From a phage, in sequence record PV730299.1: 64,000 bases of DNA. The stretch is one strand, 5' to 3'. A program made the translations under genes and the position numbers. Within the stretch, counting starts at the first letter, position 1. Every line of letters starts with the position of its first letter. Under the pieces are notes generated by a model. That model saw only the letters and a program-made list of their open reading frames with translations, made no database searches and had not been told where the DNA came from. Of the stretch, positions 3,660 through 60,836 are shown piece after piece.

Positions 3660-3708
3660 GATAATATCCTCTGTTAATGGCGGGGCAACCCCGCCTTGTT
3701 AATACTAC

Positions 3709-11211: not shown

Positions 11212-11262
11212 AACGACCTCTTTGTTTTTCTAGTAAAGACCCTCCGAGGAGGGGGATTAATA

Positions 11263-26439: not shown

Positions 26440-26516
26440 GGTCCTGTAGCTCAGTCGGTTAGAGCAGTGAACTCATAATTCATTGGTCATTGGTTCAAAC
26501 CCAATCAGGATCACCA
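26440..26516 (+). tRNA. tRNA with CAT anticodon (Met, or Ile2 if lysidine-modified)
   Basis: Manual cloverleaf: acceptor GGTCCTG/CAGGATC, D-arm GCTC-AGTCGGTTA-GAGC, anticodon loop CTCATAA, T-arm ATTGG-TTCAAAC-CCAAT, encoded CCA. Confidence 0.85.
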
Positions 26517-26769: not shown

Positions 26770-26858
26770 GGAAGGTTGCCCGAGAGGTTTAAGGGACTCG
26801 ACTGCTAATCGAGTGGGGCTTTTAGCCCCCGAAGGTTCGAATCCTTCACCTTCCGCCA
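26770..26858 (+). tRNA. tRNA-Ser (GCT anticodon), type II with long variable arm
   Basis: Manual cloverleaf: acceptor GGAAGGT/ACCTTCC, anticodon loop CTGCTAA, variable arm GTGGGGCTTTTAGCCCCC, T-arm GAAGG-TTCGAAT-CCTTC, discriminator G plus CCA. Confidence 0.85.
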
Positions 26859-27228
26859 AATTACGGGCGTGACTTCCTGAAGAGTTAGAAGATGTGCATG
26901 TCGACTCTCTCGTAATCGGGGTGTTTAGGAAGTTAAGAAAATCGCGGCGAGGATAGTGAAATGCAAATAGCTTTCTCTACGTCGACGACTTCAGGTTCGA
27001 CTCCTGACGCGCTCTCCCATAGGGTAGTACCAGTGCAAGCGTGTAGTCTTTCAACCCATCCCATCGATGTGGTATAGCCGGATATCCTATCCGGCTTTCT
27101 TTTTATCCCTGTCTTATTATCTTCTTATCGGCCCAAGCATGTCCTCCTTTATCATAGTTTGTTCAATGATACAAAGGGGGTTTAAAATTTAACCGTTAAC
27201 CCCCTGTCATAGATTTGAGGATACACCG

Positions 27229-27417
27229 ATGCGTAATGTTTCTATCTGGGAATTGAACGAAGTGATTTCCCGTGACACCCCTCCAATTGTCAGACTCTTC
27301 CGATACAAGGGTGTCAAGCGCACTCTGAATGAGTTCCTGTCGCCTGTTTACGTCTACCGTGATGGCGGGTTCTTCCGCCGCGATAAAAAACATCCCGAAC
27401 CTTGGTATGACGTTTGA
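27229..27417 (+). CDS. hypothetical protein, 62 aa
   Basis: ORF track. Confidence 0.4.
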   Translation: MRNVSIWELNEVISRDTPPIVRLFRYKGVKRTLNEFLSPVYVYRDGGFFRRDKKHPEPWYDV

Positions 27418-27886
27418 TTTGAGTATCAAAGGCCAGGTTGTGCTGATGGGTTATGGTAGCCTGGAACAATCTGAGAAAGGCCAGGGCGCTCCACTTATGG
27501 TCTTCGGTTCGTTTGAACAAGCCGTGCACTGGCTGATCAGAAACGGATATGATTTCTATGGCGAAGAAAGCGCCAATTGGCGTCGTCGCAAGGTCAAGTC
27601 TGTTGATCTGGTGGATTTGAATCTGATGTACCAGGCCATGGCTCGCGAGTATGAAAAGAATCTCGTCAAGCCTGTCGCTCAGGAGAACAATGTTGTTAAC
27701 GACGCAACTGAGTCTTCTCATCATGACGTGAACATCGTTCCAGCCTGTGAAACGAAAGCACCGACACCGCCTACTCCTCCGGCCAGTCGTGTTCTGAATG
27801 ATCAGGGTGCTCCAGTAAAACAAAAGGTCAAAAAGCCAACTTTCATGGATAACATGATGAAGTTCCTTCGTCTGTTCAAGAAGTAA
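27407..27886 (+). CDS. hypothetical protein, about 160 aa (start uncertain, alternative ATG 27446)
   Basis: ORF-track frame; first ATG overlaps stop of upstream ORF. Confidence 0.45.
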   Translation: MTFDLSIKGQVVLMGYGSLEQSEKGQGAPLMVFGSFEQAVHWLIRNGYDFYGEESANWRRRKVKSVDLVDLNLMYQAMAREYEKNLVKPVAQENNVVNDATESSHHDVNIVPACETKAPTPPTPPASRVLNDQGAPVKQKVKKPTFMDNMMKFLRLFKK

Positions 27887-27908
27887 TCCGAGATTCTCCT
27901 TTTCTATA

Positions 27909-27948
27909 CTCCTGTAGATACACTATGATAAGCCAATGTCTACAGGAG
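27909..27948 (+). promoter_or_regulatory. perfect 10-bp inverted repeat hairpin sequestering the RBS of the PLP-enzyme gene
   Basis: CTCCTGTAGA (27909-27918) pairs with TCTACAGGAG (27939-27948); 3' arm contains the AGGAG RBS. Confidence 0.45.
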
Positions 27949-27956
27949 AAAATAGA

Positions 27957-29150
27957 ATGAACAAGACCATCTTCGATATCCTTTCCCTCGACCGCAACCT
28001 GGTCCATTGGGAAGATTATCTCTACAAGCACACCCCGTGCGAACTTGTCGTCAACCCCGAAACCAATCAGCAGGTCTGGTTCAAGCGTGAAGATTATTTT
28101 GCGCCGCTGTCCAATTATGCAAATGGCCAGCAGGGCATCAACGGCAGCAAACTCCGCCAGGCCATCTGGTTGATGGTTGAGCACCTCAAGGCCGGAGGCT
28201 CCCCTGACATCATCCATGGTACTGTCGTTGGTAGTCCGCAGTCCCCTATGGCGACAGCAGTCTCTCGGCACTTCGGCGGCAAGACAACCACTGTACTCGG
28301 AGCGACCAAACCCACCACCTGTATGAACCACGACATGGTGGCAATGTCAGCCTGGTTTGGTAGTGAGTTCAACTTCGTCGGCTCGGGTTACAACAGCACG
28401 ATCCAGCCGCGCTGTAAGAAGTTGATCGAACAACAGAATCCAAAGGCGTATTATCTGGAATATGGTATCACCCTCGACCATACAGCGCATTCTCCTGAGC
28501 GCATCGCTGGCTTCCATATGCTGGGTGGCGAGCAGGTTGCCAACATCCCTGACCATATTACCGATCTGATTATCCCAGCCGGATCGTGCAACTCTTGCAC
28601 AAGTATCCTGACCGGGCTGGCAATGCATCCGAAGCCTAATCTGAAGCGTGTGTATCTGATTGGCATCGGTCCGAACCGCCTGGACTTTATCGAGAGCCGT
28701 CTGCGCATCATCGGCAAACATGCCAATCTGCCGCACATTGTCGACTTCACCCGTCGCTATCACGACAACCCAGACTATGTACACGGCAAGAAGGAGCTTC
28801 AGCATGCCTCTAAGAGCGTTTCGCTGGCTGGCCTCCTAAGTGGTATCAGGCAGAAGGAAGAGCCACAGGTCGTGCTTCCTCGCTTTGAGGTACACCATTG
28901 GGATCTTCACACCACTAATTGGGTTCGTTATAATGACCTGATGGAATATCAGTGGGGTGATATTGAGTTGCATCCTCGCTATGAAGGCAAGGTCATGACC
29001 TGGATCCAGCAGAACAAGCCCGAGTTGCTCAATGAGAAAACTCTGTTCTGGATTGTGGGAAGCAAGCCGTACATCGAGCCGATGAAGGCTGCATGTCCTG
29101 AACTGGCTATCCCCGAAGCAGTACCTGTAAACGAATTCACCCCTTCCTGA
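27957..29150 (+). CDS. PLP-dependent enzyme, fold type II (ACC deaminase / D-cysteine desulfhydrase-like)
   Basis: KREDYFAPL ... GINGSKLRQ pattern resembles the family motif K-R-E-D ... GGNK-x-RK with PLP lysine; start set to ATG 27957 with AGGAG RBS. Confidence 0.6.
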   Translation: MNKTIFDILSLDRNLVHWEDYLYKHTPCELVVNPETNQQVWFKREDYFAPLSNYANGQQGINGSKLRQAIWLMVEHLKAGGSPDIIHGTVVGSPQSPMATAVSRHFGGKTTTVLGATKPTTCMNHDMVAMSAWFGSEFNFVGSGYNSTIQPRCKKLIEQQNPKAYYLEYGITLDHTAHSPERIAGFHMLGGEQVANIPDHITDLIIPAGSCNSCTSILTGLAMHPKPNLKRVYLIGIGPNRLDFIESRLRIIGKHANLPHIVDFTRRYHDNPDYVHGKKELQHASKSVSLAGLLSGIRQKEEPQVVLPRFEVHHWDLHTTNWVRYNDLMEYQWGDIELHPRYEGKVMTWIQQNKPELLNEKTLFWIVGSKPYIEPMKAACPELAIPEAVPVNEFTPS

Positions 29151-29156
29151 TTCCTC

Positions 29157-29167
29157 CTAAATACCCC
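29157..29167 (+). promoter_or_regulatory. late-promoter-like motif CTAAATACCCC (distal copy)
   Basis: Followed by ATACCCCATAC / GTGTGGGGTAT inverted repeat. Confidence 0.4.
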
Positions 29168-29255
29168 ATACAACCAGTGTGGGGTATCTATGAAACCTTC
29201 CTCCAATATTTCCTAGAGGCGTCCTGTACAAACCAGGCCTCGCCAAGCGGGAAGC

Positions 29256-29266
29256 CTAAATACCCC
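29256..29266 (+). promoter_or_regulatory. late-promoter-like motif CTAAATACCCC (proximal copy)
   Basis: 29 nt upstream of ATG 29295. Confidence 0.5.
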
Positions 29267-29294
29267 ATATGGCTAACCCACTGAGGAACCCAAC

Positions 29295-29753
29295 ATGCCA
29301 ACCTCCAAATTGTTTGAATCAGAATACACCAATGACATCCCTGTATGGACTGGTGTTCAAGACGGTATCACGATTGAGCTGTTTGATCGTGAAGAGACAG
29401 GCGCGGAAGAGATCTATGCAGGCGTTGAAGGCACTGATGTTGTCCGCGCCGCCGTAGCTCTTGCCACCTTCCTAGAAGATGCACCGATTGATGGTGTGCC
29501 GTTCGAGGCGCACGTAGATCCCAAGGATCCGACCTCTATCATCATTACAGTGAATGGGGTGCCATACACTTCGTACAGTATCGAGACGGACGAAGAAGGC
29601 AGTGGAGCGCTGTATATTGCCACCGACCTGCAGCTGGAAGACGATGAGATGGATTATCTGATTCAGAACGGGGTGCTGCCACCGTTTACCGATGAAGAAC
29701 TGGACACGGAACTGGCCGCCGTCGGGGACGACGAAGACTTCTGGGAAGAATAA
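29295..29753 (+). CDS. acidic hypothetical protein, 152 aa, apparently late-expressed
   Basis: GAGGAA RBS; two CTAAATACCCC motifs upstream; strong terminator downstream. Confidence 0.65.
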   Translation: MPTSKLFESEYTNDIPVWTGVQDGITIELFDREETGAEEIYAGVEGTDVVRAAVALATFLEDAPIDGVPFEAHVDPKDPTSIIITVNGVPYTSYSIETDEEGSGALYIATDLQLEDDEMDYLIQNGVLPPFTDEELDTELAAVGDDEDFWEE

Positions 29754-29756
29754 GAA

Positions 29757-29785
29757 AAGGGGCTTAACGCCCCTTTCTTTATTTC
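29757..29785 (+). terminator. rho-independent terminator
   Basis: Stem AAAGGGGC/GCCCCTTT, loop TTAAC, then TCTTTATTT. Confidence 0.7.
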
Positions 29786-29914
29786 ACCTTCCGGTGCTCT
29801 GCTTCGGTATATTCGATTGCCATGATATAGTCCTTCTCTTCAGATTGTTGTTCCGTACTACAATTAGAAGTATACACCAGTTATTGAAGAAGTAAACTTT
29901 ATTCAATAAATATT

Positions 29915-30127
29915 TTAATAAATTTTGAACTCCGCTCCTTTATACACCGCCGACCCTCGTTCTATGAGGCCATCGGGAACAATCACTTTTGTTGGCCAAC
30001 CACCATCTGGAGCCTTAACAGTCAGGCGTGTCTTGTGATCGCCCAGCTGTGTCTGTTCATAGATCCTTCCGCGCACTATCGTCGCCCCGCCTTGGGTGAC
30101 GAGCAATCTCTTGTTTACCACATTCAT
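29915..30127 (-). CDS. small hypothetical protein, 70 aa
   Basis: ORF track; only 20 nt downstream of a minus-strand terminator, so would need read-through. Confidence 0.35.
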   Translation of the reverse strand: MNVVNKRLLVTQGGATIVRGRIYEQTQLGDHKTRLTVKAPDGGWPTKVIVPDGLIERGSAVYKGAEFKIY

Positions 30128-30136
30128 TCCCTAAAC

Positions 30137-30164
30137 ACCAAAAGAAAGGGGAGTTTCCTCCCCT
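30137..30164 (-). terminator. rho-independent terminator after minus-strand membrane protein gene
   Basis: 7-bp stem AGGGGAG/CTCCCCT, U-tract on minus strand. Confidence 0.55.
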
Positions 30165-30169
30165 TGAAC

Positions 30170-30742
30170 TTATTTCTTCAGATCAGGCCACGCACCAGAG
30201 GTCGCAGTAGACCCAGCTGGGGGAGCAGACTCAAGATCGGGAGAACCCGACTGAGTAACAACAGTGGGATCTTTCTGTACGACCCGAACCCCAAATTGCT
30301 TGAGAGCATCCATAGCTTGGGCTTTTCGCCTGTTGCTTTTGTAGTGGTTGTAGCCTTTGATACCGAATGATGCACTAATTGCTGTCAATAACGAATAGGT
30401 ATACCATTCAGGCGCGGTATCTAGTGCCTGAAGGCCACCGATTACTGCTTTGATGAAATCCCCTTTATGATACTCACCAGGGAACAAAATCAGTTCCACA
30501 ACTGGAGCAGTCATGACGAGGATGGCGGGTATGGCCAACACGATAGTCCAGAATTCGTCTTTCCAAGACCCGCCGACTTCGGTAATCTTAGACAGCTCCC
30601 AATCTGAGGAGGACTTGATGGCCTCCAGCTTGACGTCGTGTTTGGCCTGTACAACTTCCCGCTTATATTGGATCAAATCAGTCCCGAGGTTCCAGAGTTG
30701 CTTGAGCACCCCTGGGATCATACCAACGAGGGGGATTGCCAT
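30170..30742 (-). CDS. membrane protein, about 190 aa
   Basis: ORF-track start 30760 is TTG; ATG 30742 has AAGGAG RBS 7 nt upstream; hydrophobic segments; hairpin terminator downstream. Confidence 0.6.
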   Translation of the reverse strand: MAIPLVGMIPGVLKQLWNLGTDLIQYKREVVQAKHDVKLEAIKSSSDWELSKITEVGGSWKDEFWTIVLAIPAILVMTAPVVELILFPGEYHKGDFIKAVIGGLQALDTAPEWYTYSLLTAISASFGIKGYNHYKSNRRKAQAMDALKQFGVRVVQKDPTVVTQSGSPDLESAPPAGSTATSGAWPDLKK

Positions 30743-30821
30743 AATAAACTCCTTGGTCAATGAATGGCTCTATGGTTAAATATGCCCACGTGCTAACGGC
30801 ACGGATAACCTGGAGAATTAC

Positions 30822-33821
30822 ATGACCGTTTTCTATACGAACGTTGCCCGAAGGGGCAATGACCTGTTGATTCGAATTGCAGATGACATGGGTAATCGCC
30901 GTCTGTTGAAAAAGAAATTCGAACCCACTCTCTATTTACCCACGGCTGACTATTCAAATGTTGAAAAGGTCGGTCTTCTCAATGAACCCCTGGTAGCCAA
31001 GCAGTTCCCTTCCATGCGTGACGCTGACAACTATCTTGAAGAGTACAAGGAAGTCCAGGGTGCTGCCATTTACGGACAGACCGATTATGCATACCAGTTC
31101 ATCGCCCATAGCTTTCCTGGAAAGATTGAGCCGGATTATTCCAACATCCATATTGCTAACCTCGATATCGAAGTGTTCTCCGCCGGGTGGAAAGACGGAA
31201 AGATGACCAAAGGTCCATTCCCTCACCCAACCATTGAGCAGCAGACGTTCAAAGGGAATGAGGCGCGCATTCGCCGCTTCCATAAACAAGTGCTGGCCAA
31301 CCATGAATTTGTCCGTGAGCACTTCCCTGGTTCTTTCATCAGCAACAACGTCACTGATCAGTTCCCTATCATTGATAGCAATGGTAAGATCACCCAGGAC
31401 ATGAATGCGGCGTTCCCCATTACCCTGATCCAGCTTCAGGATATGGCGACCAATAAGTTCATGGTCTGGGGTATGCCCTGTGCCAAAGACCGCAATAAGT
31501 TCGCATACGACACCGAAGACAAAGAGATCGGCGGCCTTGAGGTTGTTTATCAGGAGTTCACCACCGAACAAGATCTGCTGCGCTCGTTCCTAGACTTCTG
31601 GTCGGAGCGTCAGTTCGACGGATGGACTGGCTGGAACATTGAGACGTTTGATAGCCCTTATCTTGTTGAGCGCATGAATCAGGTTCTGGGTGAGGCTGAA
31701 ACGTCGCGCCTCAGTCCTTGGGGTATCATTAAGAAGCGTATCATTCGCGATAAGAAGGGCGATATCACGACGTATCAGTTCGTGGGCTGTCCTATGCTCG
31801 ATTATATGCAGATCTACAAGAAACACACGTACACCACCCGTGAACGCTACTCTCTTGACTGGATTGCGTATTGTGAGCTGGGTGAGAAGAAGATGGACTA
31901 CAGTGAGAGCAAGTCGCTCTTTGATCTGTACTTCAACGACTACTGCAAACACACCCGATATGGTATCAAAGACGTTAAGCTGGTATGGCGACTTGAACAG
32001 AAGCTGCGCCTGCTCCAGCTGATGTTCGTCCTTGCTTACCGCACCAAGTCCAACTATGAGGACGGCCTGGGTACTGTGGCTCCGTGGCTGGCCATGTGCT
32101 ACTATCGCCTGTACGAGAAGGGGATAGTACCTAAGATCCAGCGTGTATACGATGGTCCGACCGACTTTGAGGGTGCATACGTCATGGATGTGACACCAGG
32201 AATCTACTTCTGGGTCTTCTCGGAAGATTTGAACTCCCTGTATCCTCACATCATTCAGCAGTACAACCTCGGTCCAGAGACTATCGTTGGCGACAAACAC
32301 CAGCGCCGCGAGATTATTGAGGCTATGTGTGAAGAGCTGGCTGCTCAGATGAATAACATGGCAACGCCGATGCACAAACGTCGGTTGATGAAAGCCCTTC
32401 ACGACAAGCTGTTGCGTGCGGTTGATGAACGCCTGCAGGTTGTTGATGAGTTGGTTGCCCTGGGTGAGTTCCACTTTGAAACCCTGCGCCGCTACAACGT
32501 GTCGTTCACACCGAACGTTCAATTCTTCAGCAACGAGAAGATGTCGTTCCTGTCTGAAATCATGCGCGGTATCTACAGCGACCGTAAAGTAGAGAAGGCC
32601 AAGGGGCTGAAGTACGAGCAGTGGGCTGGTTGGTGTAAAGAGATGTCGAAGGGCGACTTCCATCTTGAGTCTGCCATGAAGTCTCGCTACTATGACCCAG
32701 AGTGGTATGAAGAGCACAAGAACATTGATCTTGATGCCCTGACCGAAGTGATGAAGAAGTGGGAAGACCTGGGCGTCGCTCAAGATACCCTTCAACAAGG
32801 TCTGAAGATCTTGATGAACGCAGGTTATGGCGCGATCTCAAACGTCTGGTTCAAAGAGTACTTCAACCTCAACATTGCCGAAGCCATCACCACATCCGGT
32901 CAGCTGATCAACAAGTGGAACAAGCGTTACACCGATGATTATCTGAACAAGCTGTGTGGTACAACAGGCCAGGACTTCGTCATCGCAGGGGATACCGACT
33001 CCAACTACATCTGCATTGAGCGTCTTGTCAAGCATTTGTGGCCTGATGTTACTGACCATCATGCTATGGTTGATAATATCGACCAATGGATCAAAGACAA
33101 CTACCAGCCGAAGACCAATGAGTGGGCACAGCTTCTGTGTAACACCATGAACGGATTTGAACAGCGCATGGTGTGGGAGCGTGAGGTCATTGCGTCAGCC
33201 GCTGTCTGGCGAGCCAAGAAGATGTATGCCATGGCCGTGTACGACAGTGAGGGTATCAAGTACGAGAAGCCGAAGATCAAGTTCAAAGGTCTGGAAGCCC
33301 GCAAGTCCACCACACCGGAATGGTGTCGTGAGCGTCTTGTCAAGTGCTATGAGAAGATCCTACTCGGCACCGAAGAGGAAGTGCAGACGCTCATCTCCCA
33401 GTACAAAGAGGAGTATATGAAACTCTCTGTAGACGATATCGCCAAGGCGTCAGGTGTGTCCGACATAGAGAAGTGTGTGGCTGCTGACGGATCGTTTATA
33501 TCTGGTGCTCATTTTGCTGCCAAGGCGTGTGTGGGCTACAACCGTCTGGTTGAGAAGAACGAAGATCTGGGTCTACCGATGATCGAGTCGGGTGATAAGG
33601 TACAGATGGTGTTGTTGAAGCCGGGCAACCCGTTTGGGCAGAACTACTTTGCATATCCTGAGTTCTTCCCCGAGGAGCTTGGTCTGGGCAAATGGGTGGA
33701 TTATCAGGCGGCCTTTGAGAAGTCCTTCATTGATCCGATTCAGTCTATCCTCGACGTGGTCGGCTGGTCACACAAGCGCCGTGTGAACCTTCTTGCCATG
33801 ATGCAAAAGAAGAAAGGTTGA
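30822..33821 (+). CDS. DNA polymerase, family B, T4 gp43-like
   Basis: FPSMRDA N-terminal motif, SLYPHII and GDTDS polymerase motifs, AITTSGQ; TGGAG RBS. Confidence 0.95.
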   Translation: MTVFYTNVARRGNDLLIRIADDMGNRRLLKKKFEPTLYLPTADYSNVEKVGLLNEPLVAKQFPSMRDADNYLEEYKEVQGAAIYGQTDYAYQFIAHSFPGKIEPDYSNIHIANLDIEVFSAGWKDGKMTKGPFPHPTIEQQTFKGNEARIRRFHKQVLANHEFVREHFPGSFISNNVTDQFPIIDSNGKITQDMNAAFPITLIQLQDMATNKFMVWGMPCAKDRNKFAYDTEDKEIGGLEVVYQEFTTEQDLLRSFLDFWSERQFDGWTGWNIETFDSPYLVERMNQVLGEAETSRLSPWGIIKKRIIRDKKGDITTYQFVGCPMLDYMQIYKKHTYTTRERYSLDWIAYCELGEKKMDYSESKSLFDLYFNDYCKHTRYGIKDVKLVWRLEQKLRLLQLMFVLAYRTKSNYEDGLGTVAPWLAMCYYRLYEKGIVPKIQRVYDGPTDFEGAYVMDVTPGIYFWVFSEDLNSLYPHIIQQYNLGPETIVGDKHQRREIIEAMCEELAAQMNNMATPMHKRRLMKALHDKLLRAVDERLQVVDELVALGEFHFETLRRYNVSFTPNVQFFSNEKMSFLSEIMRGIYSDRKVEKAKGLKYEQWAGWCKEMSKGDFHLESAMKSRYYDPEWYEEHKNIDLDALTEVMKKWEDLGVAQDTLQQGLKILMNAGYGAISNVWFKEYFNLNIAEAITTSGQLINKWNKRYTDDYLNKLCGTTGQDFVIAGDTDSNYICIERLVKHLWPDVTDHHAMVDNIDQWIKDNYQPKTNEWAQLLCNTMNGFEQRMVWEREVIASAAVWRAKKMYAMAVYDSEGIKYEKPKIKFKGLEARKSTTPEWCRERLVKCYEKILLGTEEEVQTLISQYKEEYMKLSVDDIAKASGVSDIEKCVAADGSFISGAHFAAKACVGYNRLVEKNEDLGLPMIESGDKVQMVLLKPGNPFGQNYFAYPEFFPEELGLGKWVDYQAAFEKSFIDPIQSILDVVGWSHKRRVNLLAMMQKKKG

Positions 33822-33834
33822 TTCAATAAACCAA

Positions 33835-33854
33835 AGGGGGATATAATTCCCCCT
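33835..33854 (+). terminator. hairpin after DNA polymerase gene (weak U-tract)
   Basis: Stem AGGGGG/CCCCCT, loop ATATAATT; preceded by TTCAATAAA. Confidence 0.35.
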
Positions 33855-33883
33855 GTTAACCCTTTGACAAACAGGTGATTGAA

Positions 33884-34225
33884 ATGAAACTCAATAAGAT
33901 TCTTCTGGTGTGCGCTCTGGCTTTCTCTACCACTGCGTGTTCCACCCTTCTGGACGTTGCTTCTACTGTAGACCTTGACGCGCCGACGTTCACCAATGAG
34001 CAGGCCGTGTCCAAGATGGAAGACACCATCAAGGCGCATGCAGCACTGGACAACACTACCCCAGGTCCGCTCCAAACTGTCTGCAACTATGACGATTCCA
34101 TCCAGGAAGACGAAACTTACCACTGCATCACCTACGTGAAGCAGGCCTCCGTCGTTCTGTATGCAGATTGTACCGAAGAACAGTGTGTTGCTACAGGCTA
34201 CGATAAAGTTGAGGAAGACAAATGA
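33884..34225 (+). CDS. putative secreted protein or lipoprotein, 113 aa
   Basis: Signal-peptide-like N-terminus ending LAFSTTAC; start set to ATG 33884 with AGGTGA RBS. Confidence 0.5.
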   Translation: MKLNKILLVCALAFSTTACSTLLDVASTVDLDAPTFTNEQAVSKMEDTIKAHAALDNTTPGPLQTVCNYDDSIQEDETYHCITYVKQASVVLYADCTEEQCVATGYDKVEEDK

Positions 34226-35001
34226 ACAACCTGGTTTGTATCTATGATATGAAATCAAAGGTCGGTGGCCTGTATCGCGTCCTCGTGGATGTTGACCTGA
34301 CGTTGGTCGACAGCCTCTCCCCTTGGGTGCAGTGGTTTAACGAAGAGAACATCGCCGCCGCTGCTATCGCTACGGGGGAACATAAGTCATACCAGTTCCA
34401 GCCGATTACCAAAGAGTGTTATATGTCCCATGCTGGCGACCTGGCTATTCTGATGCGTGAACGTGCGCATCCGGCGTGGCTATACCATGAAGTCCAATTG
34501 GGGATGCACAAACAACGTGTGCCAAGCGGTAACGATCCTATGGACTGGTGGCGTCGCCCTGACTTGTACGCCAAGATGAACCCACTTCCTGGTGCTTACG
34601 AGTTCCTGGTGAATCTGAAGAAGATTCTGCTCGAAGACTTTGACAATGTTGAATTCATCGCGGTGTCGAAGTGCGAGCCGGAACACGAGCGCAGCAAGCG
34701 TCAGTTTGTCTATGATAAGTTCCCTGGTATCTTCAACGGGTTTGTCAGCACCGACGAAAAGCATCTGCTGGCTGGCGATGTCCTGATTGATGACAATCCG
34801 AAGTATGTCGAGCCATGCGGTCTGAACAACATCTTTGTCATCTTTGTTCCTCAGGGCAATTATGAAAAACTGGATCTTTCGAATTCGGAAGACATGCTTT
34901 ATATTAAACCAGTAGAAGGCCAGAATCACTTCGACTTCCTGAACCGCAATATTGTTGAAGTGGTTAACCGCCTGATTAGTCATTATCAATACGTCCGATA
35001 G
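34222..35001 (+). CDS. HAD-superfamily hydrolase, possible nucleotidase/phosphatase
   Basis: N-terminal DVDLTLVD (DxDxT) HAD motif; ATGA start/stop overlap with upstream gene. Confidence 0.6.
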   Translation: MNNLVCIYDMKSKVGGLYRVLVDVDLTLVDSLSPWVQWFNEENIAAAAIATGEHKSYQFQPITKECYMSHAGDLAILMRERAHPAWLYHEVQLGMHKQRVPSGNDPMDWWRRPDLYAKMNPLPGAYEFLVNLKKILLEDFDNVEFIAVSKCEPEHERSKRQFVYDKFPGIFNGFVSTDEKHLLAGDVLIDDNPKYVEPCGLNNIFVIFVPQGNYEKLDLSNSEDMLYIKPVEGQNHFDFLNRNIVEVVNRLISHYQYVR

Positions 35002-35010
35002 GAGGACATC

Positions 35011-35316
35011 GTGCAAGAACAATCCAAGTTTGGGGAAACCCCAGACAAGCGTTCCGGTGATAGCGACATGGATAGCGTGATTAACCATGTGAACAACTTC
35101 ATTCGTCAGCAGGAGACTCCAACTCCTATCGGTGCAGCCAAGGCTCTTCATGATGTACTGGTGAAGATCGGCCAGCGCTCTGAAGCGGATGAAATCTTCT
35201 ATAACTTTGAAGACCAGTATAAAGTGAAGTTTGAAGAAAACGGTCGTCCGCAGGTTGCTGTGTTCTGGGCACCTTGGCTGGGCGGCGTGAGCTGGCGTAT
35301 TGAGGATGCTGTGTAA
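35011..35316 (+). CDS. hypothetical protein, 101 aa (GTG start)
   Basis: AGGAGG RBS 5 nt upstream of GTG. Confidence 0.5.
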   Translation: MQEQSKFGETPDKRSGDSDMDSVINHVNNFIRQQETPTPIGAAKALHDVLVKIGQRSEADEIFYNFEDQYKVKFEENGRPQVAVFWAPWLGGVSWRIEDAV

Positions 35317-36002
35317 TGCTGTCGCTCTACCTGATCACGAATCTCGTCAATCATAAATTCTATATCGGTGTCACCTCAGAACCGGATAGGCGGTTGGCTG
35401 AGCATAAGTGTGGTCAGGGGAGCATTGCATTACAACGAGCGTTCAAGAAATACGGTGAAGACCAGTTCAAGTTTGAAGTTCTGTTCCGAGGGAAAGATTC
35501 GGTTATCCTTGAGATAGAGTCTGAACTGGTCTGCCAGGAGATCCTTGACTCTGGGTGGTGCTACAACATGGTCGTCGGGGGTGGGAAGCCTCCATTGGCC
35601 ACGCCAGAGTCATCCGCAAAGAGCGCCGCAACCCGCAAACGTTTGATCGCTGAAGGTAAGATTAAACCTCCACCAAGACTCACCCCTGAAGCACAAGCCA
35701 GAAAGGGTAAGATCATAAGCAAATTGATGTCAGAAGGGAAGATCCCCAAACCACCAAGACCTTCCTCTGAATCTCAAACGCGTGGAGGGGGAACTAGGAA
35801 GAGGCTGCATGCTCTTGGTCTGATAGACATTGGTCCTGGTCGCGATGAAAAGATTTACAAATGGCAGCACAAAGATGGTCGCATCGTTGAGTTAAGAAGA
35901 TGCGACATGGAACTTCAATATGGCCTCCCTTCCGGTAATATAACGAATCTCTTGAAAGGTAGGGCTAAAACATGTCTCGGTTGGAGAATATTAAATGGCT
36001 AA
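35316..36002 (+). CDS. GIY-YIG homing endonuclease (Seg-like), free-standing
   Basis: N-terminal LYLITN-x-KFYIGVT with downstream Arg and EH residues; basic repetitive C-terminal DNA-binding-like region. Confidence 0.75.
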   Translation: MLSLYLITNLVNHKFYIGVTSEPDRRLAEHKCGQGSIALQRAFKKYGEDQFKFEVLFRGKDSVILEIESELVCQEILDSGWCYNMVVGGGKPPLATPESSAKSAATRKRLIAEGKIKPPPRLTPEAQARKGKIISKLMSEGKIPKPPRPSSESQTRGGGTRKRLHALGLIDIGPGRDEKIYKWQHKDGRIVELRRCDMELQYGLPSGNITNLLKGRAKTCLGWRILNG

Positions 36003-36912
36003 AATAATTGTAGTGAAAGGCACCTCGGCCACGGGCAAGGGTACGAGAGTGGTCCAGTTCATCGAATGGCTGCGCACTAAGCTGGAGCCTACCGAACTGA
36101 CCTACACCGTTGGTGACAAGACTCGCCCGTTTGGCCTGAAGTTCGGAGAGCTGAAGTTAATCTTCGTTGGGCAGTACACCGTGTCTAACAAATCCGGTCT
36201 GGCTTCCTGGACTTCAATGGATGCAATCCATGCTGCTACAGGCTCAGGCGATATTGCTCGTGATCTAATCAAGTGCTGGTTGGTTCAGGGATACACTCTG
36301 GTGTGTGAGGGCGAACCTCTCATGCTATCGGACAAATGGCGTCCTGAATGGATGTTCAAGAACTATCCGATTGAATCATTGGCGCTGCTGTACTTTGCGT
36401 ACCCCGACCGCTATCAGTACGATGCTCGTATCCGTGGTCGATCTGGTAAAGAAGCAGGGAACTCCGGCTGGTCGCGCAACGAATCTTACTACAAGGAGTT
36501 TGAGAAGTCGAAGGCCGAAATGCTGGCGCTGGGCTTCACTGTGGCTGTTGATGATTACAGCGGACAGGATATCCTGTATAAATCACCGGATGCCAACACC
36601 AAGGAGTTCACAACCAAACAGCAGTCTGAGTTGGCGGTACTACCGTTCGACGCCCCGCTGTGGGTTGTGGGTAATGCGATTTGTCATCAGATCCGCTCTG
36701 AACTGCGTGGTGTTGACATGCACACCAAAGACTTCTACGCCTACTGTGAAACCAATCCGATGACTCGTGAAATCGGCGGCCAGGATCCTTTGGCGCACAG
36801 AGTCCCTGAGAAGCCGCAGAAGGCATCCAAAACTAAAACCAAGGCGAGCGCCCAGCCAGAAGCACCGAAGGCAGCGTCGCGCTCTCTCCTTGACCTGATG
36901 AAGAAGGGGTGA
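35995..36912 (+). CDS. P-loop kinase-like protein (candidate nucleotide or DNA-base kinase)
   Basis: N-terminal KGTSATGKGT Walker-A-like motif; overlaps stop of homing endonuclease gene. Confidence 0.55.
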   Translation: MAKIIVVKGTSATGKGTRVVQFIEWLRTKLEPTELTYTVGDKTRPFGLKFGELKLIFVGQYTVSNKSGLASWTSMDAIHAATGSGDIARDLIKCWLVQGYTLVCEGEPLMLSDKWRPEWMFKNYPIESLALLYFAYPDRYQYDARIRGRSGKEAGNSGWSRNESYYKEFEKSKAEMLALGFTVAVDDYSGQDILYKSPDANTKEFTTKQQSELAVLPFDAPLWVVGNAICHQIRSELRGVDMHTKDFYAYCETNPMTREIGGQDPLAHRVPEKPQKASKTKTKASAQPEAPKAASRSLLDLMKKG

Positions 36913-36914
36913 TC

Positions 36915-37112
36915 ATGAAACGGTTGTCTAATTATCTGTTGTTCATTGGTCTGGTTATGGCAGCCGTTTCAATGTGTACTGCCCTAGCCTATCATTTCAC
37001 CCCTCTGGACTTAACAACCTCAGAGAAGTTGAACGTGACTGTGATGTACTGTATTGGCGCGGTGATGTCTATCGGCGCTGCTGGTTACAAAATATTCAAG
37101 GAACCAAAATGA
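36915..37112 (+). CDS. small membrane protein, 65 aa
   Basis: Two hydrophobic helices; ATG with AGGGGTGA RBS. Confidence 0.45.
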   Translation: MKRLSNYLLFIGLVMAAVSMCTALAYHFTPLDLTTSEKLNVTVMYCIGAVMSIGAAGYKIFKEPK

Positions 37113-37489
37113 AAATTCAAATCCCTCGCGATGCTGTGGCTGTTGCGATCGACTACACCGGAAACGCCAAGCACATTACTGCCGTGCGCCTGATTCCTGA
37201 AAAGAACTGCGTCATCCCTCAGTTCCAACTGAATGCCAATCCGTCGTCCAAAGACTTTGGCAAGTGGTTGCAGGCTGCTCCGTTCCGTACCCAGACGAAC
37301 GCTCAGATGTTCATCTCGAGTAAGACCCACACCGCAGCCCGTCTGTGGTTCGTGACCGCTGACCGTCGCTTTGTCGATATGTGGGAACGTCCGATGGGGT
37401 TCGTGAAGCCGGAAGATATTCAGCTGGCTCCTGAGCCTGAAGCTGTGGCTCCTGAAGAGGAAGCGAAAGATGAAAATCAAGCAGGTTGA
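37109..37489 (+). CDS. hypothetical protein, 126 aa
   Basis: ATGA overlap with upstream stop. Confidence 0.55.
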   Translation: MKIQIPRDAVAVAIDYTGNAKHITAVRLIPEKNCVIPQFQLNANPSSKDFGKWLQAAPFRTQTNAQMFISSKTHTAARLWFVTADRRFVDMWERPMGFVKPEDIQLAPEPEAVAPEEEAKDENQAG

Positions 37490-37655
37490 TTTTATCTTCA
37501 TGATGTTGATGTTCGTTATCTTTACGGTTTCGCTGGTCGGCGTCATGGTCACAGAAGGAGTGCAACAGCGCCCATTCTTGGTGATATGTCCTGTATCTAT
37601 CGCCACTTTCTTCTATCTGGCGTTCCGTGTTGAACTCGGGAGTAAAATCGGATGA
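37470..37655 (+). CDS. small membrane protein, 61 aa
   Basis: ORF track; hydrophobic; overlaps neighbours at both ends. Confidence 0.45.
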   Translation: MKIKQVDFIFMMLMFVIFTVSLVGVMVTEGVQQRPFLVICPVSIATFFYLAFRVELGSKIG

Positions 37656-38887
37656 CACATCTGTCTAAAATGCCGCAGGGATATAAAGCCCCTGAAAAAT
37701 GGAAATACCCGATTGATCTGGCAATAGATTATCGTAAGCCAGAAAATCGCATGTACCTACTCAAGGCTTGGGTGGAGGCGCTGTCCTACACCGAAGAGCA
37801 CAACCAGCAGATGCGTCTGATGGACTATGCGATCGAAGTCACTGAAGGTATCAGCCTCGAACAGAAAGTCGAGCGCAAGATCTGGATGGCATTCCTGTGG
37901 GGTTGTTGCTATAACGCCGTCGGGCCGTGGACGATCTACAGTGAGTTCCCTGTACCACCCCAGTCCAAAGAAGGGATGCAGCGCTTCTCTGATTGGTATA
38001 ATCTGAACTTTGATCGCATGCGATTCGATACCGACTGTCGCTACCGCAAGTCCAAGATGATTCCGTGTGTTCAGTCCTATATTGACTGGCTGGCTGGCCG
38101 TACTCAATATGACGCTTTCCGTGGGATGTTGGTGTGCATCGATAAGACAGAACAATTCACCCAGCTGTGGGACACGGCGATGTCCTGGAAATACTTCGGT
38201 CGCCTGAGCGCCTGGAACTTCCTGGAAGCCCTGAACATGGTCTTCGGGAACGAATACACCATTGACGTCCCTGGCTTCATGCTGCGTGATCGTGATGGAA
38301 GCGAGTCCAACCGTAATGGCGCGGCGTTCTTGTCCAACCGTGACGATTGGGTGACTAAACACGGGAAGAAAAAGATCAACGGTTGTCCTATCACGGATGA
38401 AGAGTGTGACATCCTTGAGGCCGACCTTGAGCAGGCGTTCCAGGATTGTGTGGCTGAGTTCGGGCACCTGACGTTCATCAACCGCCTGAACTTTGAAACC
38501 TCCGGCGCTTGTTGGCTGAAGAAATTCTTCCGACTGAAGAATACCCGTTACATCGGGTGGGACGCAGAGCGTACCTGGGATGAGATAGACTACATGGAAC
38601 GCGTCTGGCCTGAATACTCCTGCGCAGAGCTCTGGGAAGCCCGTTCGCTCTGGCTGCCAGATACCCTGTTATGTGAAAAGGCTCCTGCAGGGCACGTTCC
38701 AGGCGTCCAGAAGTGGAAGATGCCTGTATTCTTTGAGACTGGTGTTCCTCTGCATATCTGGCACCTGCAAAAGGGTACGCGCTGGGAACCATCCGAGGTA
38801 TGTACGAACCTGAAGATGCCTGTGCGCAAGGTTGAGGACAAGTCGAAGTCCAGCAGCGTCAACCTCATGGCACTCTTGAAACGCTGA
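37652..38887 (+). CDS. hypothetical protein, 411 aa, Trp/Cys-rich; possible partner of the kinase
   Basis: ORF track; ATGA-coupled to upstream genes; no motif I can assign. Confidence 0.6.
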   Translation: MTHLSKMPQGYKAPEKWKYPIDLAIDYRKPENRMYLLKAWVEALSYTEEHNQQMRLMDYAIEVTEGISLEQKVERKIWMAFLWGCCYNAVGPWTIYSEFPVPPQSKEGMQRFSDWYNLNFDRMRFDTDCRYRKSKMIPCVQSYIDWLAGRTQYDAFRGMLVCIDKTEQFTQLWDTAMSWKYFGRLSAWNFLEALNMVFGNEYTIDVPGFMLRDRDGSESNRNGAAFLSNRDDWVTKHGKKKINGCPITDEECDILEADLEQAFQDCVAEFGHLTFINRLNFETSGACWLKKFFRLKNTRYIGWDAERTWDEIDYMERVWPEYSCAELWEARSLWLPDTLLCEKAPAGHVPGVQKWKMPVFFETGVPLHIWHLQKGTRWEPSEVCTNLKMPVRKVEDKSKSSSVNLMALLKR

Positions 38888-38895
38888 TATAAATA
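38888..38895 (+). promoter_or_regulatory. TATAAATA, canonical T4-type late promoter sequence
   Basis: 29 nt upstream of ATG 38924; overlaps 5' arm of a hairpin. Confidence 0.35.
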
Positions 38896-38923
38896 TCCTC
38901 GCCTATAAAGCGAGGATATTATC

Positions 38924-39091
38924 ATGTTACAAGATCTGCTGGTTTATGCGCTTCCTGGCGCGGTTGTCGGCTTCATTGCTGGTGCTCTGGTCTTCCGTAA
39001 ACACGCGCAAGATGGTGAAGTGATTGTTCAGAAAGGCAAAGAGATTCTGGACCAGATCGAAGCCAAACTGGAAGAGCTGAAGAAAAAGTAA
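38924..39091 (+). CDS. small membrane protein, 55 aa
   Basis: Manual ORF; hydrophobic N-terminal helix; strong terminator downstream; TATAAATA 29 nt upstream. Confidence 0.4.
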   Translation: MLQDLLVYALPGAVVGFIAGALVFRKHAQDGEVIVQKGKEILDQIEAKLEELKKK

Positions 39092-39119
39092 TCTGACTGG
39101 GGTTGCTTCCTTCAATAAA

Positions 39120-39158
39120 GGGGAATGGGTTATTATTAGCCCATTCCCCTTTCTTTTT
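39120..39158 (+). terminator. rho-independent terminator
   Basis: 10-bp stem GGGGAATGGG/CCCATTCCCC, loop TTATTATTAG, then TTTCTTTTT; preceded by TTCAATAAA. Confidence 0.75.
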
Positions 39159-39259
39159 GCAAGAATATACATCATGGCAATGCAACGAATTGAAGATATG
39201 TCTCTACTCAACATGGAAGCGACTTTTGGCGCTTCCGTTATCGTCATGGGAGAATCCAA

Positions 39260-39478
39260 ATGATCAAGAACACCCGAACAATGAAGCGCGCAATCGCTCA
39301 CTGTGTCCATTCAGTGGCAACTATTATGTTCCGCCACCACATCACATTTGATGAAGCACTGGACCCACAGTACCATGAAGAGCGTTGGGATTTGTTGTTA
39401 AAGAACGGCGCCAATCCTGAGCATAAAGATCAACTCCTTGGTATGACCAAGGCGCAGCTCGTCGGTGAATCCAAATGA
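39260..39478 (+). CDS. hypothetical protein, 72 aa
   Basis: ORF track. Confidence 0.45.
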   Translation: MIKNTRTMKRAIAHCVHSVATIMFRHHITFDEALDPQYHEERWDLLLKNGANPEHKDQLLGMTKAQLVGESK

Positions 39479-40590
39479 TCTACCTCCTGTTTGGTGTGCC
39501 ATTGGTACTGGCTATCCTGTTTGTGACCTACCACCGCAAGACCCATGAGCCGAAAGAGACTCTGATAGCGACCGCGATTGTAGTGGTGCTATCCTGTCTG
39601 ATTCAGGCGGGGACTTATGCTGCGTTCTCCCTTGGTAGTTCAGGGGATGTTGAGATCCTGAACGGGTACGTCACTGCAAAGGAGCGGAATGAGGTGAGCT
39701 GTGAGCATTCATATGAATGCAACTGTTACTACACCACATCTTGTACAGGTTCAGGAAATAACCGATCTTGTACACAAACGCGTCATTGCAGCACATGCTA
39801 TGAGCATTCATATGACGTGGACTGGGATGTGTTGACGACTGTCGGTAATCTGACGATTGACCGCATTGATCGTCGCGGCCTTGGTCAGCCCCCGCGCTGG
39901 GCGCAGGTTCAGATCGGCGAACCCGCAGCCCGTGAGCATTCCTACATGAACTATGTGCTGGGTAACAAGGACTCTCTGTTCTCTCGCTCGGACCAGCAGT
40001 TTGCTGAGCGCTTCAAAGACAAGATTCCGAAGTATCCCGAAGTCTATGACTACTATCGCGTCACTCGTGTACTGAATGTGTCTGGTCTGGCGTTACCGAC
40101 CACATACTGGAACGACTATCTGAACAATACTCTGAAAACATTAGGCGCTTCACGTCAGGTCAATATCGTCTGGGTTGTGACTTCCGGTCAGCCAGTTGAA
40201 TACTTCCAGGGCTTGGTCTATGCTTGGGATGGTGGTAAAAAGAACGACGTTATCGTCGTGACCGACATCAACAAAGACCTGAAGATCAACTGGGGTAAGA
40301 GCACTTCGTTCGCTGATGGTATGCATAACCGTGAACTCCACTCTCGCAATGGCATGGCTCTCACAGGCCACGACATGGGTGTCGGTGTCATGGCTGATGT
40401 TGTCGCTAACATCACCAAAGGCTACAACCGCGTTGAGATGAAGGAAATGGAGTACCTGAAGTGGCGGGAACTCAAGACCTGGGAAGTTGTGATTGTTGTT
40501 CTGCTAGGCTGTCTACCGTTCACCGCAATTTTCATATTACAGCGAATGGAGTACAATGGTGGCCGTCGTCGTTATCCGTTTAATTTTTAA
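39475..40590 (+). CDS. membrane protein with Cys-rich extracytoplasmic region, 371 aa
   Basis: N- and C-terminal hydrophobic helices; cluster of eight Cys in CEHSYECNCYYTTSCTGSGNNRSCTQTRHCSTC; immediately upstream of LemA-like gene. Confidence 0.6.
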   Translation: MIYLLFGVPLVLAILFVTYHRKTHEPKETLIATAIVVVLSCLIQAGTYAAFSLGSSGDVEILNGYVTAKERNEVSCEHSYECNCYYTTSCTGSGNNRSCTQTRHCSTCYEHSYDVDWDVLTTVGNLTIDRIDRRGLGQPPRWAQVQIGEPAAREHSYMNYVLGNKDSLFSRSDQQFAERFKDKIPKYPEVYDYYRVTRVLNVSGLALPTTYWNDYLNNTLKTLGASRQVNIVWVVTSGQPVEYFQGLVYAWDGGKKNDVIVVTDINKDLKINWGKSTSFADGMHNRELHSRNGMALTGHDMGVGVMADVVANITKGYNRVEMKEMEYLKWRELKTWEVVIVVLLGCLPFTAIFILQRMEYNGGRRRYPFNF

Positions 40591-40608
40591 TCAAAAGAGG
40601 AAGTAAGA

Positions 40609-60015: not shown

Positions 60016-60330
60016 ATGACCCCATTAAAAGAAATGTATGAGCGTCTGGCTGAACTACAGGCGAAGGAAAAGCGCTTCTCAGAAGAAGAGTCTGAAATTG
60101 CCGAGCTGAACAACCTGATCGCCACTCGTGAGAAGTACCTGCAGCGCTACATTAATCACCCGCCGCGCATGGTAGACCGCGTCAGCACTATCATGGACCT
60201 GGATGAAGTTACTCCTGGCAAAGAAATCATTGTCAGGGAAGTCCACCAGATGGTCGCCATGGGTCAGATCTTTGGTCGTGCAGACCAAGACGACATGATC
60301 TTCCTCCTTGAAAAGAAACTGGTGATGTGA
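60016..60330 (+). CDS. hypothetical protein, 104 aa
   Basis: ORF track. Confidence 0.5.
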   Translation: MTPLKEMYERLAELQAKEKRFSEEESEIAELNNLIATREKYLQRYINHPPRMVDRVSTIMDLDEVTPGKEIIVREVHQMVAMGQIFGRADQDDMIFLLEKKLVM

Positions 60331-60836
60331 TGGCTATCAAACCCCGTATGTTATTTGCGCATATGCGCTCGGCTCATGCATACGCTCTGTCCAGCTATGC
60401 CCAGCGCCTGAAGGTCGGCTGTGTTATCGTTGACCCGCGTGTTGACCAGCCCCTGTCTATCGGTTGGAACGGGACTGCTCCTGGCGCTCCTAATGTCTGT
60501 GAGAAGGAAGTAGACGGTCAACTGGTATCGGTGGGTGTTATCCACGCCGAGGAGAATGCTCTGAGCAAACTCCCCCAGCACACCGAAGACTGTTGTGGTC
60601 TGGTGATGTTTGTCACTCATAGTCCATGCCCAGAGTGCACCCGTCGTATTATCGACAGTGGCAAGATCGCTAAAGTGTTCTATGACCGACCATATCGTAT
60701 CATAGACGGCATTATTGAAATGCTGGCTGCTGGGATTGAAGTATATCGCATGGTCGATCAGATTGTTGTAGTCCAGCATTCTGTGAAGAACGGCGAACTG
60801 GTATCCACCCCTGTTTTAGTGAACCCTGACAAATAA
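60330..60836 (+). CDS. cd: dCMP deaminase (cytidine/deoxycytidylate deaminase family)
   Basis: HAEENAL and SPCPECTRRI zinc-binding motifs; ATG overlaps upstream stop. Confidence 0.8.
   Translation: MAIKPRMLFAHMRSAHAYALSSYAQRLKVGCVIVDPRVDQPLSIGWNGTAPGAPNVCEKEVDGQLVSVGVIHAEENALSKLPQHTEDCCGLVMFVTHSPCPECTRRIIDSGKIAKVFYDRPYRIIDGIIEMLAAGIEVYRMVDQIVVVQHSVKNGELVSTPVLVNPDK

Follow-up and report, generated by a model that had tools for sequence, protein, structure and literature searches.

The 64,000-nucleotide stretch of phage DNA analysed here (record PV730299.1, hereafter the window) very probably carries, at positions 27,957 to 38,887, the post-replicative half of a ViI-type thymidine hypermodification pathway. 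Its source is an Agtrevirus-like member of the Ackermannviridae, with approximately 96% DNA identity to the Escherichia phages AV101, A221 and RPN242. A kinase, a transferase and a PLP enzyme encoded in this region are syntenic orthologues of gp243, gp247 and gp226 from Salmonella phage ViI (84–92% identity). The gene module is real, yet it was previously described in ViI, the enzymes of which have been characterised biochemically by Lee et al. 2018 PNAS (PMC5889632) and Lee et al. 2021/22 NAR (PMC8989533).

The ViI route leads from 5-hmdU by way of 5-PmdU and O-serinyl-T to 5-(2-aminoethoxy)methyl-dU (5-NeOmdU; PMC8989533). Five genes sufficed for its reconstitution, namely gp67, gp160, gp226, gp243 and gp247 (PMC5889632). 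The product of gp243 is a kinase acting on 5-hmdU DNA, gp247 is a serine:DNA transferase for which activity and essential Cys and Glu residues were reported, and purified gp226 is a PLP-dependent decarboxylase of O-serinylthymidine (O-SerT) in DNA (PMC8989533). A nucleoside of 301 Da was detected in ViI, CBA6, CBA120 and Vibrio phage 1.255.O, and according to the same authors the remaining ViI-like phages in their table of 5-HMUDK phages, which includes phage Ag3, likely contain this nucleoside as well (PMC5889632). Ag3 is a close relative of the window phage. A review describes the modification genes as conserved throughout the Ackermannviridae (PMC11721090), and 5-NeOmdU replaces about 40% of T in ViI-like phages.

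Results and Discussion

A first-pass annotation of the window had called four open reading frames in this region and had described them as flanking a DNA polymerase gene. All four were found, on the + strand, and an uninterrupted gene for a 999-aa family-B polymerase sits between them. The features are as follows.

27957..29150, +, PLP-dependent decarboxylase of DNA-borne 5-O-serinylthymidine, orthologue of ViI gp226 (YP_004327553); function predicted (92% identity)
30822..33821, +, family-B DNA polymerase, 999 aa (Pfam DNA_pol_B_exo1 and DNA_pol_B); context, not specific to the module
34222..35001, +, NT5C-like HAD phosphatase, putative pyrimidine 5'(3')-deoxyribonucleotidase, orthologue of ViI orf00239 (Pfam NT5C, fold)
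35995..36912, +, 5-hydroxymethyl-dU DNA kinase (5-HMUDK, HMUD2 family), orthologue of ViI gp243; activity predicted (Pfam HMUD2)
37652..38887, +, serine:DNA transferase (clade-2 aGPT-Pplase, Pfam ADDT), orthologue of ViI gp247; activity predicted (Pfam ADDT)
60330..60833, +, dCMP deaminase (64% identity to ViI dCMP deaminase by tblastn; Pfam dCMP_cyt_deam_1, E 4e-16)

The same annotation had proposed a post-replicative thymidine hypermodification module like that of ViI-like phages. This idea is borne out by the identity to ViI gp243, gp247 and gp226 (84, 88 and 92%, respectively) together with the shared gene order. Its further statement that this combination of genes fits no described pathway must be withdrawn, because the set exactly matches the published ViI 5-NeOmdU route. 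The polymerase gene is syntenic with ViI orf00236; it is uninterrupted here but split in RPN242 and in Dickeya phages.

Kinase and transferase

The kinase matches Pfam HMUD2 over its full length (524.6 bits, E 8.5e-158), is 84% identical to gp243 and contains the P-loop GTSATGKGT. A search of its sequence against all PDB chains returned no match. The transferase scores 203 bits against Pfam ADDT (E 6.5e-60) and is 88% identical to gp247 over all 411 aa. With this protein as query, phmmer gave no match among all PDB chains up to E 10, so the structure of its glycine-transferring counterpart, PaMx11 gp46, is not directly alignable. We therefore judged the catalytic residues by identity to gp247 and by alignment with distant ADDT proteins. 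The motif NFETSGACW, which carries E282 and C287, is identical to that of ViI; C287 is invariant even among ADDT relatives with 28–29% identity, and E282, the sole Glu nearby, is kept.

The transferase gene had been described as ATGA-coupled, and it does overlap, by ATGA, the 61-aa ORF that precedes it. Downstream of the gene lies a strong hairpin terminator (39117–39152). A scan of positions 27000–41000 for promoters and terminators gave no excess over shuffled controls (12 vs 13.8 and 16 vs 11.9).

The PLP enzyme

This protein is 92% identical to gp226 across 394 aa. The mechanically called ORF spans 27936–29150, but we prefer the start at 27957 given in the first-pass annotation: AGGAG is found 8 nt upstream, and the same ATG with the same context is used in ViI and RPN242. 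Compared with gp226 and the RPN242 protein, about 23 codons are missing at the N-terminus. Short forms exist in kutterviruses too (P0002, 400 aa). We also considered whether the PLP gene of AV101 is disrupted, as its annotation begins 300 bp late; the translation is intact, which identifies the late start as an annotation artefact.

The Schiff-base lysine in the motif GSKLRQ (K65 here, K92 in ViI) is invariant in an alignment of 33 homologues. By sequence, the enzyme falls outside the ACC deaminase / D-cysteine desulfhydrase family: its score against Pfam PALP is below threshold (30.4 bits, cut-off 35, E 3.2e-7), and phmmer against all PDB chains found no match. An AlphaFold2 (AF2) model (pLDDT 90.7) best matches D-cysteine desulfhydrase 4d97 (E 6e-12) and the ACC deaminases 1tzk and 1j0a, with 13–17% identity, and gp226 itself was modelled on 1j0a by the pathway authors (PMC8989533). 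Since these three structures fit best, the earlier label of an ACC-deaminase-like fold-type II PLP enzyme holds as a description of fold. The accompanying remark that such an enzyme has no place in a described pathway does not, given that gp226 is the published O-serinyl-thymidine decarboxylase (PMC8989533). The PLP enzyme has the fold of ACC deaminases and D-cysteine desulfhydrases without the function of that family.

The 454 homologues of the PLP enzyme are spread far wider than those of the HAD enzyme. One of them, P0117, is a natural fusion of kinase and PLP enzyme that adjoins an ADDT gene, and on an unrelated contig of 183 kb the PLP gene abuts an ADDT gene. Together, these two arrangements link the PLP family to hypermodification by independent genomic evidence.

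Proposed mechanism and product

The following scheme carries over to the window phage, by orthology, the steps published for ViI and for related hypermodifying phages. Replication would put 5-hmdU in place of part of the T in phage DNA, with the family-B polymerase (30822–33821) incorporating 5-hmdUTP, as in the published scheme for such phages; the source of this 5-hmdUTP would be a thyA-like dUMP hydroxymethylase, whose gene the window does not contain. The kinase (35995–36912) would then transfer phosphate from ATP to the 5-hydroxymethyl group in DNA, giving 5-PmdU. On the transferase (37652–38887), the conserved Cys would attack C6, expel the phosphate and form an exocyclic methylene, which would capture the hydroxyl of free L-serine to afford 5-O-serinylthymidine. 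Finally, the PLP enzyme (27957–29150) would decarboxylate the tethered serine by way of a Schiff base to its free alpha-amine, yielding 5-NeOmdU.

The dCMP deaminase in the window would make dUMP, the substrate of the dUMP hydroxymethylase, and may in this way be linked to the pathway. By tblastn, the 64-kb window contains neither the genes for the pre-replicative 5-hmdUTP supply (thyA-like dUMP hydroxymethylase, dNMP kinase dnk, dUTPase) nor the paralogues gp67, which is the second kinase, and gp160; the nearest relative, AV101, has all of them, in genome parts beyond the coverage of the window. With the dUMP hydroxymethylase, gp67 and gp160 outside it, completeness of the pathway is not demonstrable for the window genome.

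Orthology predicts 5-NeOmdU as the virion base of this phage, and the 88–92% identity with the assayed ViI proteins suggests serine as the donor. The same kit of enzymes could in principle make a different base, through a non-serine donor or a different PLP reaction. The donors of clade-2 aGPT-Pplases do vary (glycine in M6 and PaMx11, putrescine in PhiW-14, serine in ViI; PMC8989533), and about 12% of the residues of the transferase and 8% of those of the PLP enzyme differ from ViI. However, the identity of 88–92% extends over the full length of both proteins, the active-site motif is the same, and the 301-Da base is shared by the far more distant ViI-like Vibrio phage 1.255.O, so that we consider another product improbable. 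More improbable still is that the PLP enzyme serves amino-acid metabolism and has no role on DNA. This idea draws on homologue names in UniRef/JGI such as 'threonine ammonia lyase' and 'ACC deaminase/D-cysteine desulfhydrase-like', and on the top structural matches, D-cysteine desulfhydrase and ACC deaminase. The identity to those matches is only 13–17%, whereas purified gp226, at 92% identity, decarboxylates O-SerT in DNA (PMC8989533), and members of the family are fused to a 5-hmdU DNA kinase or adjoin ADDT genes elsewhere.

The HAD enzyme

The product of the gene at 34222–35001 is 76% identical to ViI orf00239. It matches Pfam NT5C with 35 bits (cut-off 24.8, E 1.6e-8), a match confined to residues 109–198. 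Across 23 homologues there is no variation at D23, D25 and T27 (DxDxT), S158, K159 or D190-D191, and the best PDB folds for the AF2 model (pLDDT 88) are the deoxyribonucleotidases 3bwv, mdN 1q92 and cdN 2jao. The protein thus combines the catalytic motifs of NT5C enzymes (DxDxT, S/T, K, DD) with an NT5C-like fold. Its gene is located between the polymerase and kinase genes, and its cap domain is enlarged. We considered a phosphoserine phosphatase feeding the serine co-substrate, a role that is unlikely because the Pfam and fold matches both indicate deoxyribonucleotidases. The most likely function is that of a pyrimidine dNMP nucleotidase, which would adjust dTMP/dUMP pools; a literature search for pyrimidine dNMP dephosphorylation by this enzyme found no assay.

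The first-pass annotation had counted this enzyme as part of the module, but it is at most a putative member and stands outside the five-gene ViI reconstitution set. Two readings of its role deserve weighing. In the one that we consider evenly balanced between true and false, the protein would serve nucleotide salvage or pools in the Ackermannviridae generally, with no role specific to hypermodification, and would be found near the kinase only through synteny within the family. Besides its place outside the reconstitution set, a nucleotidase goes without mention in either ViI pathway paper (PMC5889632, PMC8989533). Nearly all of its 63 homologues are more than 40% identical, and those that are named or on long contigs are Ackermannviridae phages, compared with 454 widely spread homologues of the PLP enzyme; the gene is conserved across the family, and its close homologues follow phage family, not hypermodification system. 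The two distant clusters examined showed no HAD gene.

Against a purely general role stands the presence of mdN among the structural matches. This enzyme prefers dUMP and dTMP, and it is these pools that decide between hmdU and T in DNA. In addition, L007 encodes an analogous, non-homologous YfbR-like HD-type 5'-nucleotidase two genes 3' of a thymidylate-synthase (hydroxymethylase) homologue in the same cluster. A second, doubtful reading starts from the enlarged cap domain, the conservation across the Ackermannviridae and the gene position between polymerase and kinase; in it, the HAD enzyme would be an unrecognised sixth component, a dTMP-/dUMP-selective nucleotidase that sets the ratio of 5-NeOmdU to T (about 40:60) via competition between dTTP and 5-hmdUTP. 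Activities that degrade dTMP are a classical finding in Bacillus phages with hmU or U in their DNA, and a sixth component of this kind, if true, would parallel them.

Annotation and significance

The nearest deposited genomes mostly label these genes 'hypothetical protein', 'guanylate kinase' or 'threonine dehydratase'. They can be renamed with confidence as predicted 5-hmdU DNA kinase, serine:DNA transferase and O-serinylthymidine decarboxylase. Beyond correct annotation, the significance is small. The DNA of the window phage would be expected to contain 5-NeOmdU at a large share of T positions. According to the literature reviewed, this base blocks many restriction endonucleases; its expected presence bears on restriction digestion and some sequencing chemistries, as well as on likely resistance to host nucleases when Ackermannviridae phages are under consideration for therapy or biocontrol.

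Comparison with known systems

The HAD enzyme shares the HAD core and the DxDxT and DD motifs with the NT5C family (human mdN and cdN, Staphylococcus epidermidis 3bwv), but at 16–18% identity and a TM-score of about 0.5–0.7, and with a much larger cap region. The transferase belongs to the same ADDT/aGPT-Pplase2 family as gp46 of PaMx11 (PUGT), a glycine:DNA transferase whose crystal structures are 8Z2M and 8Z2N, and shares its covalent-cysteine mechanism (Cys247 and Glu243 in PUGT; PMC11472151). The two differ in the donor, which is glycine in PUGT and predicted to be serine here, and in the Glu-Cys spacing, which is off by one residue (ETSGAC in the window, E243/C247 in PUGT); they are too distant for a sequence match.

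Pseudomonas phage M6 makes 5-NedU with the kinase gp54, the glycine:DNA transferase gp51, the radical-SAM isomerase gp53 and the PLP decarboxylase gp52. Common to both systems is the order of kinase, amino-acid transfer by an aGPT-Pplase2 and PLP-dependent decarboxylation of the DNA-tethered amino acid. M6 differs in using glycine as the donor, attached through an N-C linkage that makes a radical-SAM isomerase necessary before decarboxylation, whereas O-attachment of serine leaves the alpha-amine free for PLP (PMC8989533). No radical-SAM gene was seen within the examined region of the window.

The closest system is that of ViI (Kuttervirus). Three enzyme families are shared at 84–92% identity, with the catalytic Lys, Cys and Glu in common, and the gene order is PLP enzyme, polymerase, HAD enzyme, kinase and transferase in both. 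The window phage belongs to another subfamily (Aglimvirinae, Agtrevirus-like), and its PLP enzyme is without the N-terminal stretch of about 23 residues. It has a GIY-YIG homing endonuclease gene inserted directly 5' of the kinase gene and the additional 61-aa ORF, encoding a membrane protein, immediately 5' of the transferase gene, and it does without two small ORFs that ViI has between the PLP gene and the polymerase gene. These differences from ViI leave the catalytic features untouched.

Identification of the Four Enzymes

All four ORFs described in the first-pass annotation were found on the plus strand. Pfam and PHROG searches of these genes and their neighbors gave the following matches.

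27936–29150, plus strand: PLP enzyme (Pfam PALP, 30.4 bits, under the 35-bit cut-off)
30822–33821: family-B DNA polymerase, 999 aa (Pfam)
34222–35001, plus strand: HAD enzyme (Pfam NT5C, E 1.6e-8)
35995–36912, plus strand: kinase (Pfam HMUD2, "5-hmdU DNA kinase 2", E 8.5e-158, full length)
37470–37655, plus strand: 61-aa predicted membrane ORF (phrog_7943, E 5.5e-44)
37652–38887, plus strand: 411-aa transferase (Pfam ADDT, "amino acid:DNA transferase", E 6.5e-60)

The PLP ORF as called mechanically starts at 27936. The previously proposed start at 27957 is sound, with an AGGAG motif 8 nt before it and an ATG and context shared with Salmonella phage ViI (NC_015296) and Escherichia phage RPN242. 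The ATGA overlap at 37652 is also real, and couples the transferase gene to the 61-aa membrane ORF upstream. The description of the PLP enzyme as an ACC-deaminase-like fold II protein was borne out by an AlphaFold2 model (33 homologues as input; pLDDT 90.7, pTM 0.89). Foldseek comparison of this model with the PDB returned D-cysteine desulfhydrase 4d97 as the top match (E 6e-12), followed by the ACC deaminases 1tzk and 1j0a, and then by serine/threonine dehydratases and tryptophan synthase beta.

Orthology with the ViI Pathway

Pairwise BLASTP paired the PLP enzyme with ViI gp226 (92% identity over 394 aa), the kinase with gp243 (84%), the 411-aa protein with gp247 (88% over the full 411 aa), and the HAD enzyme with orf00239 (76%). 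The gene order is the same in ViI (orf00226, polymerase orf00236, orf00239, orf00243, orf00247). The first-pass annotation was therefore right to see a thymidine hypermodification module of the ViI kind, and mistaken that no described pathway matches this combination, since the ViI pathway to 5-(2-aminoethoxy)methyl-dU (5-NeOmdU) uses orthologous enzymes (PMC5889632, PMC8989533). The module is an already known system.

Lysates expressing gp67, gp160, gp226, gp243, and gp247 convert 5-hmdU DNA to 5-NeOmdU DNA (Lee et al. 2018, PMC5889632), and the individual steps were assigned by Lee et al. 2021/22 (PMC8989533). In the latter work gp243 and gp67 were identified as 5-hmdU DNA kinases yielding 5-PmdU. 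Purified gp247 joins L-serine via its side-chain oxygen to give 5-O-serinylthymidine (O-SerT), an activity that requires a conserved Cys and a neighboring Glu. The purified gp226 protein, which is yellow, binds PLP and removes the carboxyl group of O-SerT to give 5-NeOmdU; K92 is the predicted Schiff-base lysine, and PDB 1j0a served as the authors' modeling template (PMC8989533).

In the window, the lysine of the PLP enzyme's GSKLRQ motif is retained (K65, numbered from 27957) and is invariant across the 33 homologues. ViI and the window share the transferase motif NFETSGACW without change, and C287 does not vary even among ADDT proteins of only 28–29% identity. Kinase, transferase, and PLP enzyme, the three defining enzymes, all carry the sequence hallmarks of a ViI-type 5-NeOmdU system. 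By orthology with ViI and related phages, we infer that 5-hmdU would enter the DNA during replication and that the kinase would add a phosphate to its hydroxymethyl group. The transferase would then form a Cys–C6 adduct and expel the phosphate, the resulting exocyclic methylene would capture the hydroxyl group of serine, and the PLP enzyme would decarboxylate the tethered amino acid.

By tblastn, ViI gp67, the thyA-like dUMP hydroxymethylase, dnk, dUTPase, and gp160 have no match within the 64-kb window. The nearest relative, Escherichia phage AV101, encodes all five (61–91% identity) in regions beyond the window's coverage. Two other genes do lie within it.

50801–51379: homologue of a ViI protein that carries a MazG-like pyrophosphatase annotation, with no Pfam match of its own
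60330–60833: dCMP deaminase

Approximately 40% of T is replaced by 5-NeOmdU in ViI, CBA6, CBA120, and Vibrio phage 1.255.O, and the authors consider the other ViI-like phages in their table, Shigella phage Ag3 among them, likely to contain this base (PMC5889632). According to a 2024 review, the modification genes are conserved across Ackermannviridae, and 60% of commercial endonucleases are unable to cut such DNA (PMC11721090).

The HAD Enzyme

The HAD motifs (D23-x-D25-x-T27, S158, K159, D190-D191) are intact and invariant. An AlphaFold2 model (pLDDT 88) best matches the deoxyribonucleotidases 3bwv, human mdN (1q92), and mouse cdN (2jao). Nearly all of the 63 detectable homologues exceed 40% identity, and those that are named or lie on long contigs belong to Ackermannviridae phages. 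The enzyme is not among the five ViI reconstitution genes and is mentioned in neither pathway paper (PMC5889632, PMC8989533). Given these motifs, fold matches, and homologue distribution, and its absence from the reconstitution set and papers, we consider it a probable pyrimidine dNMP nucleotidase that could plausibly be linked to hypermodification.

Linkage in Other Genomes

A homologue search with the PLP enzyme gave 454 proteins, among them P0117 (620 aa, at 10001–11863 of a Logan SRR32390732 contig), a natural fusion of an N-terminal HMUD2 kinase with a C-terminal gp226-like PLP enzyme. It is followed by genes for an ADDT protein (Pfam E 4e-20), HMUDK_hel, a thymidylate-synthase homologue, and a YfbR-like HD 5'-nucleotidase; this cluster also holds a dUTPase and a NUMOD3 endonuclease, and adjoins a PolIII-alpha-type polymerase. 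On an unrelated 183-kb contig (GCA_964402715.1, 10001–15213), the PLP gene overlaps the start of the ADDT gene. This fusion and this adjacency provide independent support for a functional link between these enzymes.

On the 183-kb contig, the gp226-like PLP and ADDT genes are followed by those for a 258-aa protein without Pfam match and a 713-aa protein with a weak radical-SAM-like N-terminus (under the Pfam cut-off) and a clear family-2 glycosyltransferase domain. This cluster may encode a further elaborated, so far undescribed thymidine hypermodification.

Genomic Context and Comparison with Known Phages

Megablast of window positions 27900–39000 against deposited phage genomes matched 284 records. 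The best matches were Escherichia phages AV101, A221, and RPN242 (95–96% identity); Ag3 matched with 92%. All four belong to the subfamily Aglimvirinae of Ackermannviridae. From the neck/tailspike region, the window extends past two tRNA genes to rIIA/rIIB, topoisomerase, and dCMP deaminase.

26440–26516: tRNA-Met
26770–26858: tRNA-Ser
57830–58495, plus strand: homologue of the ViI "QueC-like" protein (61% identity)

RPN242 also has two tRNA genes, and AV101 has four. For the tailspike and VriC region (1–25000), sequence coverage by Salmonella phage vB_CECAV_050, the best deposited relative, reaches only 74%, which fits the receptor-binding-domain swapping known for Ackermannviridae tailspikes. 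Only the N-terminal part of the QueC-like homologue matches Pfam QueC (28.3 bits), and no further queuosine or 7-deazaguanine genes were noticed in the annotated relatives looked at.

Within the module, the PLP decarboxylase genes of the window (27957–28030) and AV101 lack approximately 23 N-terminal codons directly after the shared start codon that are present in ViI (15539–15630) and RPN242. The deposited AV101 annotation begins this gene approximately 300 bp downstream of its true start and overlays the 5' part with a spurious minus-strand ORF, although the reading frame is intact. Between the PLP and polymerase genes (29150–30822), the window lacks two small minus-strand ORFs of AV101 (3534–3998, 4532–5089) that have equivalents in ViI, and keeps three others (phrog_3852, phrog_4732, and phrog_2524, no assigned function). 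The polymerase gene is intact in the window; in RPN242 and Dickeya phages it is split by other homing-endonuclease insertions. In the window, a homing-endonuclease gene is inserted directly before the kinase gene.

35316–36002, plus strand: SegD-like GIY-YIG homing endonuclease (Pfam GIY-YIG, E 5.6e-8)

It is flanked by the orf00240 homologue and the kinase gene, overlapping the start of the latter by 8 nt, and is shared with AV101 and RPN242 but absent at the same site in ViI. The 61-aa membrane ORF before the transferase gene is absent from both ViI and AV101 but common in kutterviruses; its 93.8% DNA identity to many of these (FEC14, 4HA11, LPST94) suggests exchange between genera. The differences from ViI are peripheral.
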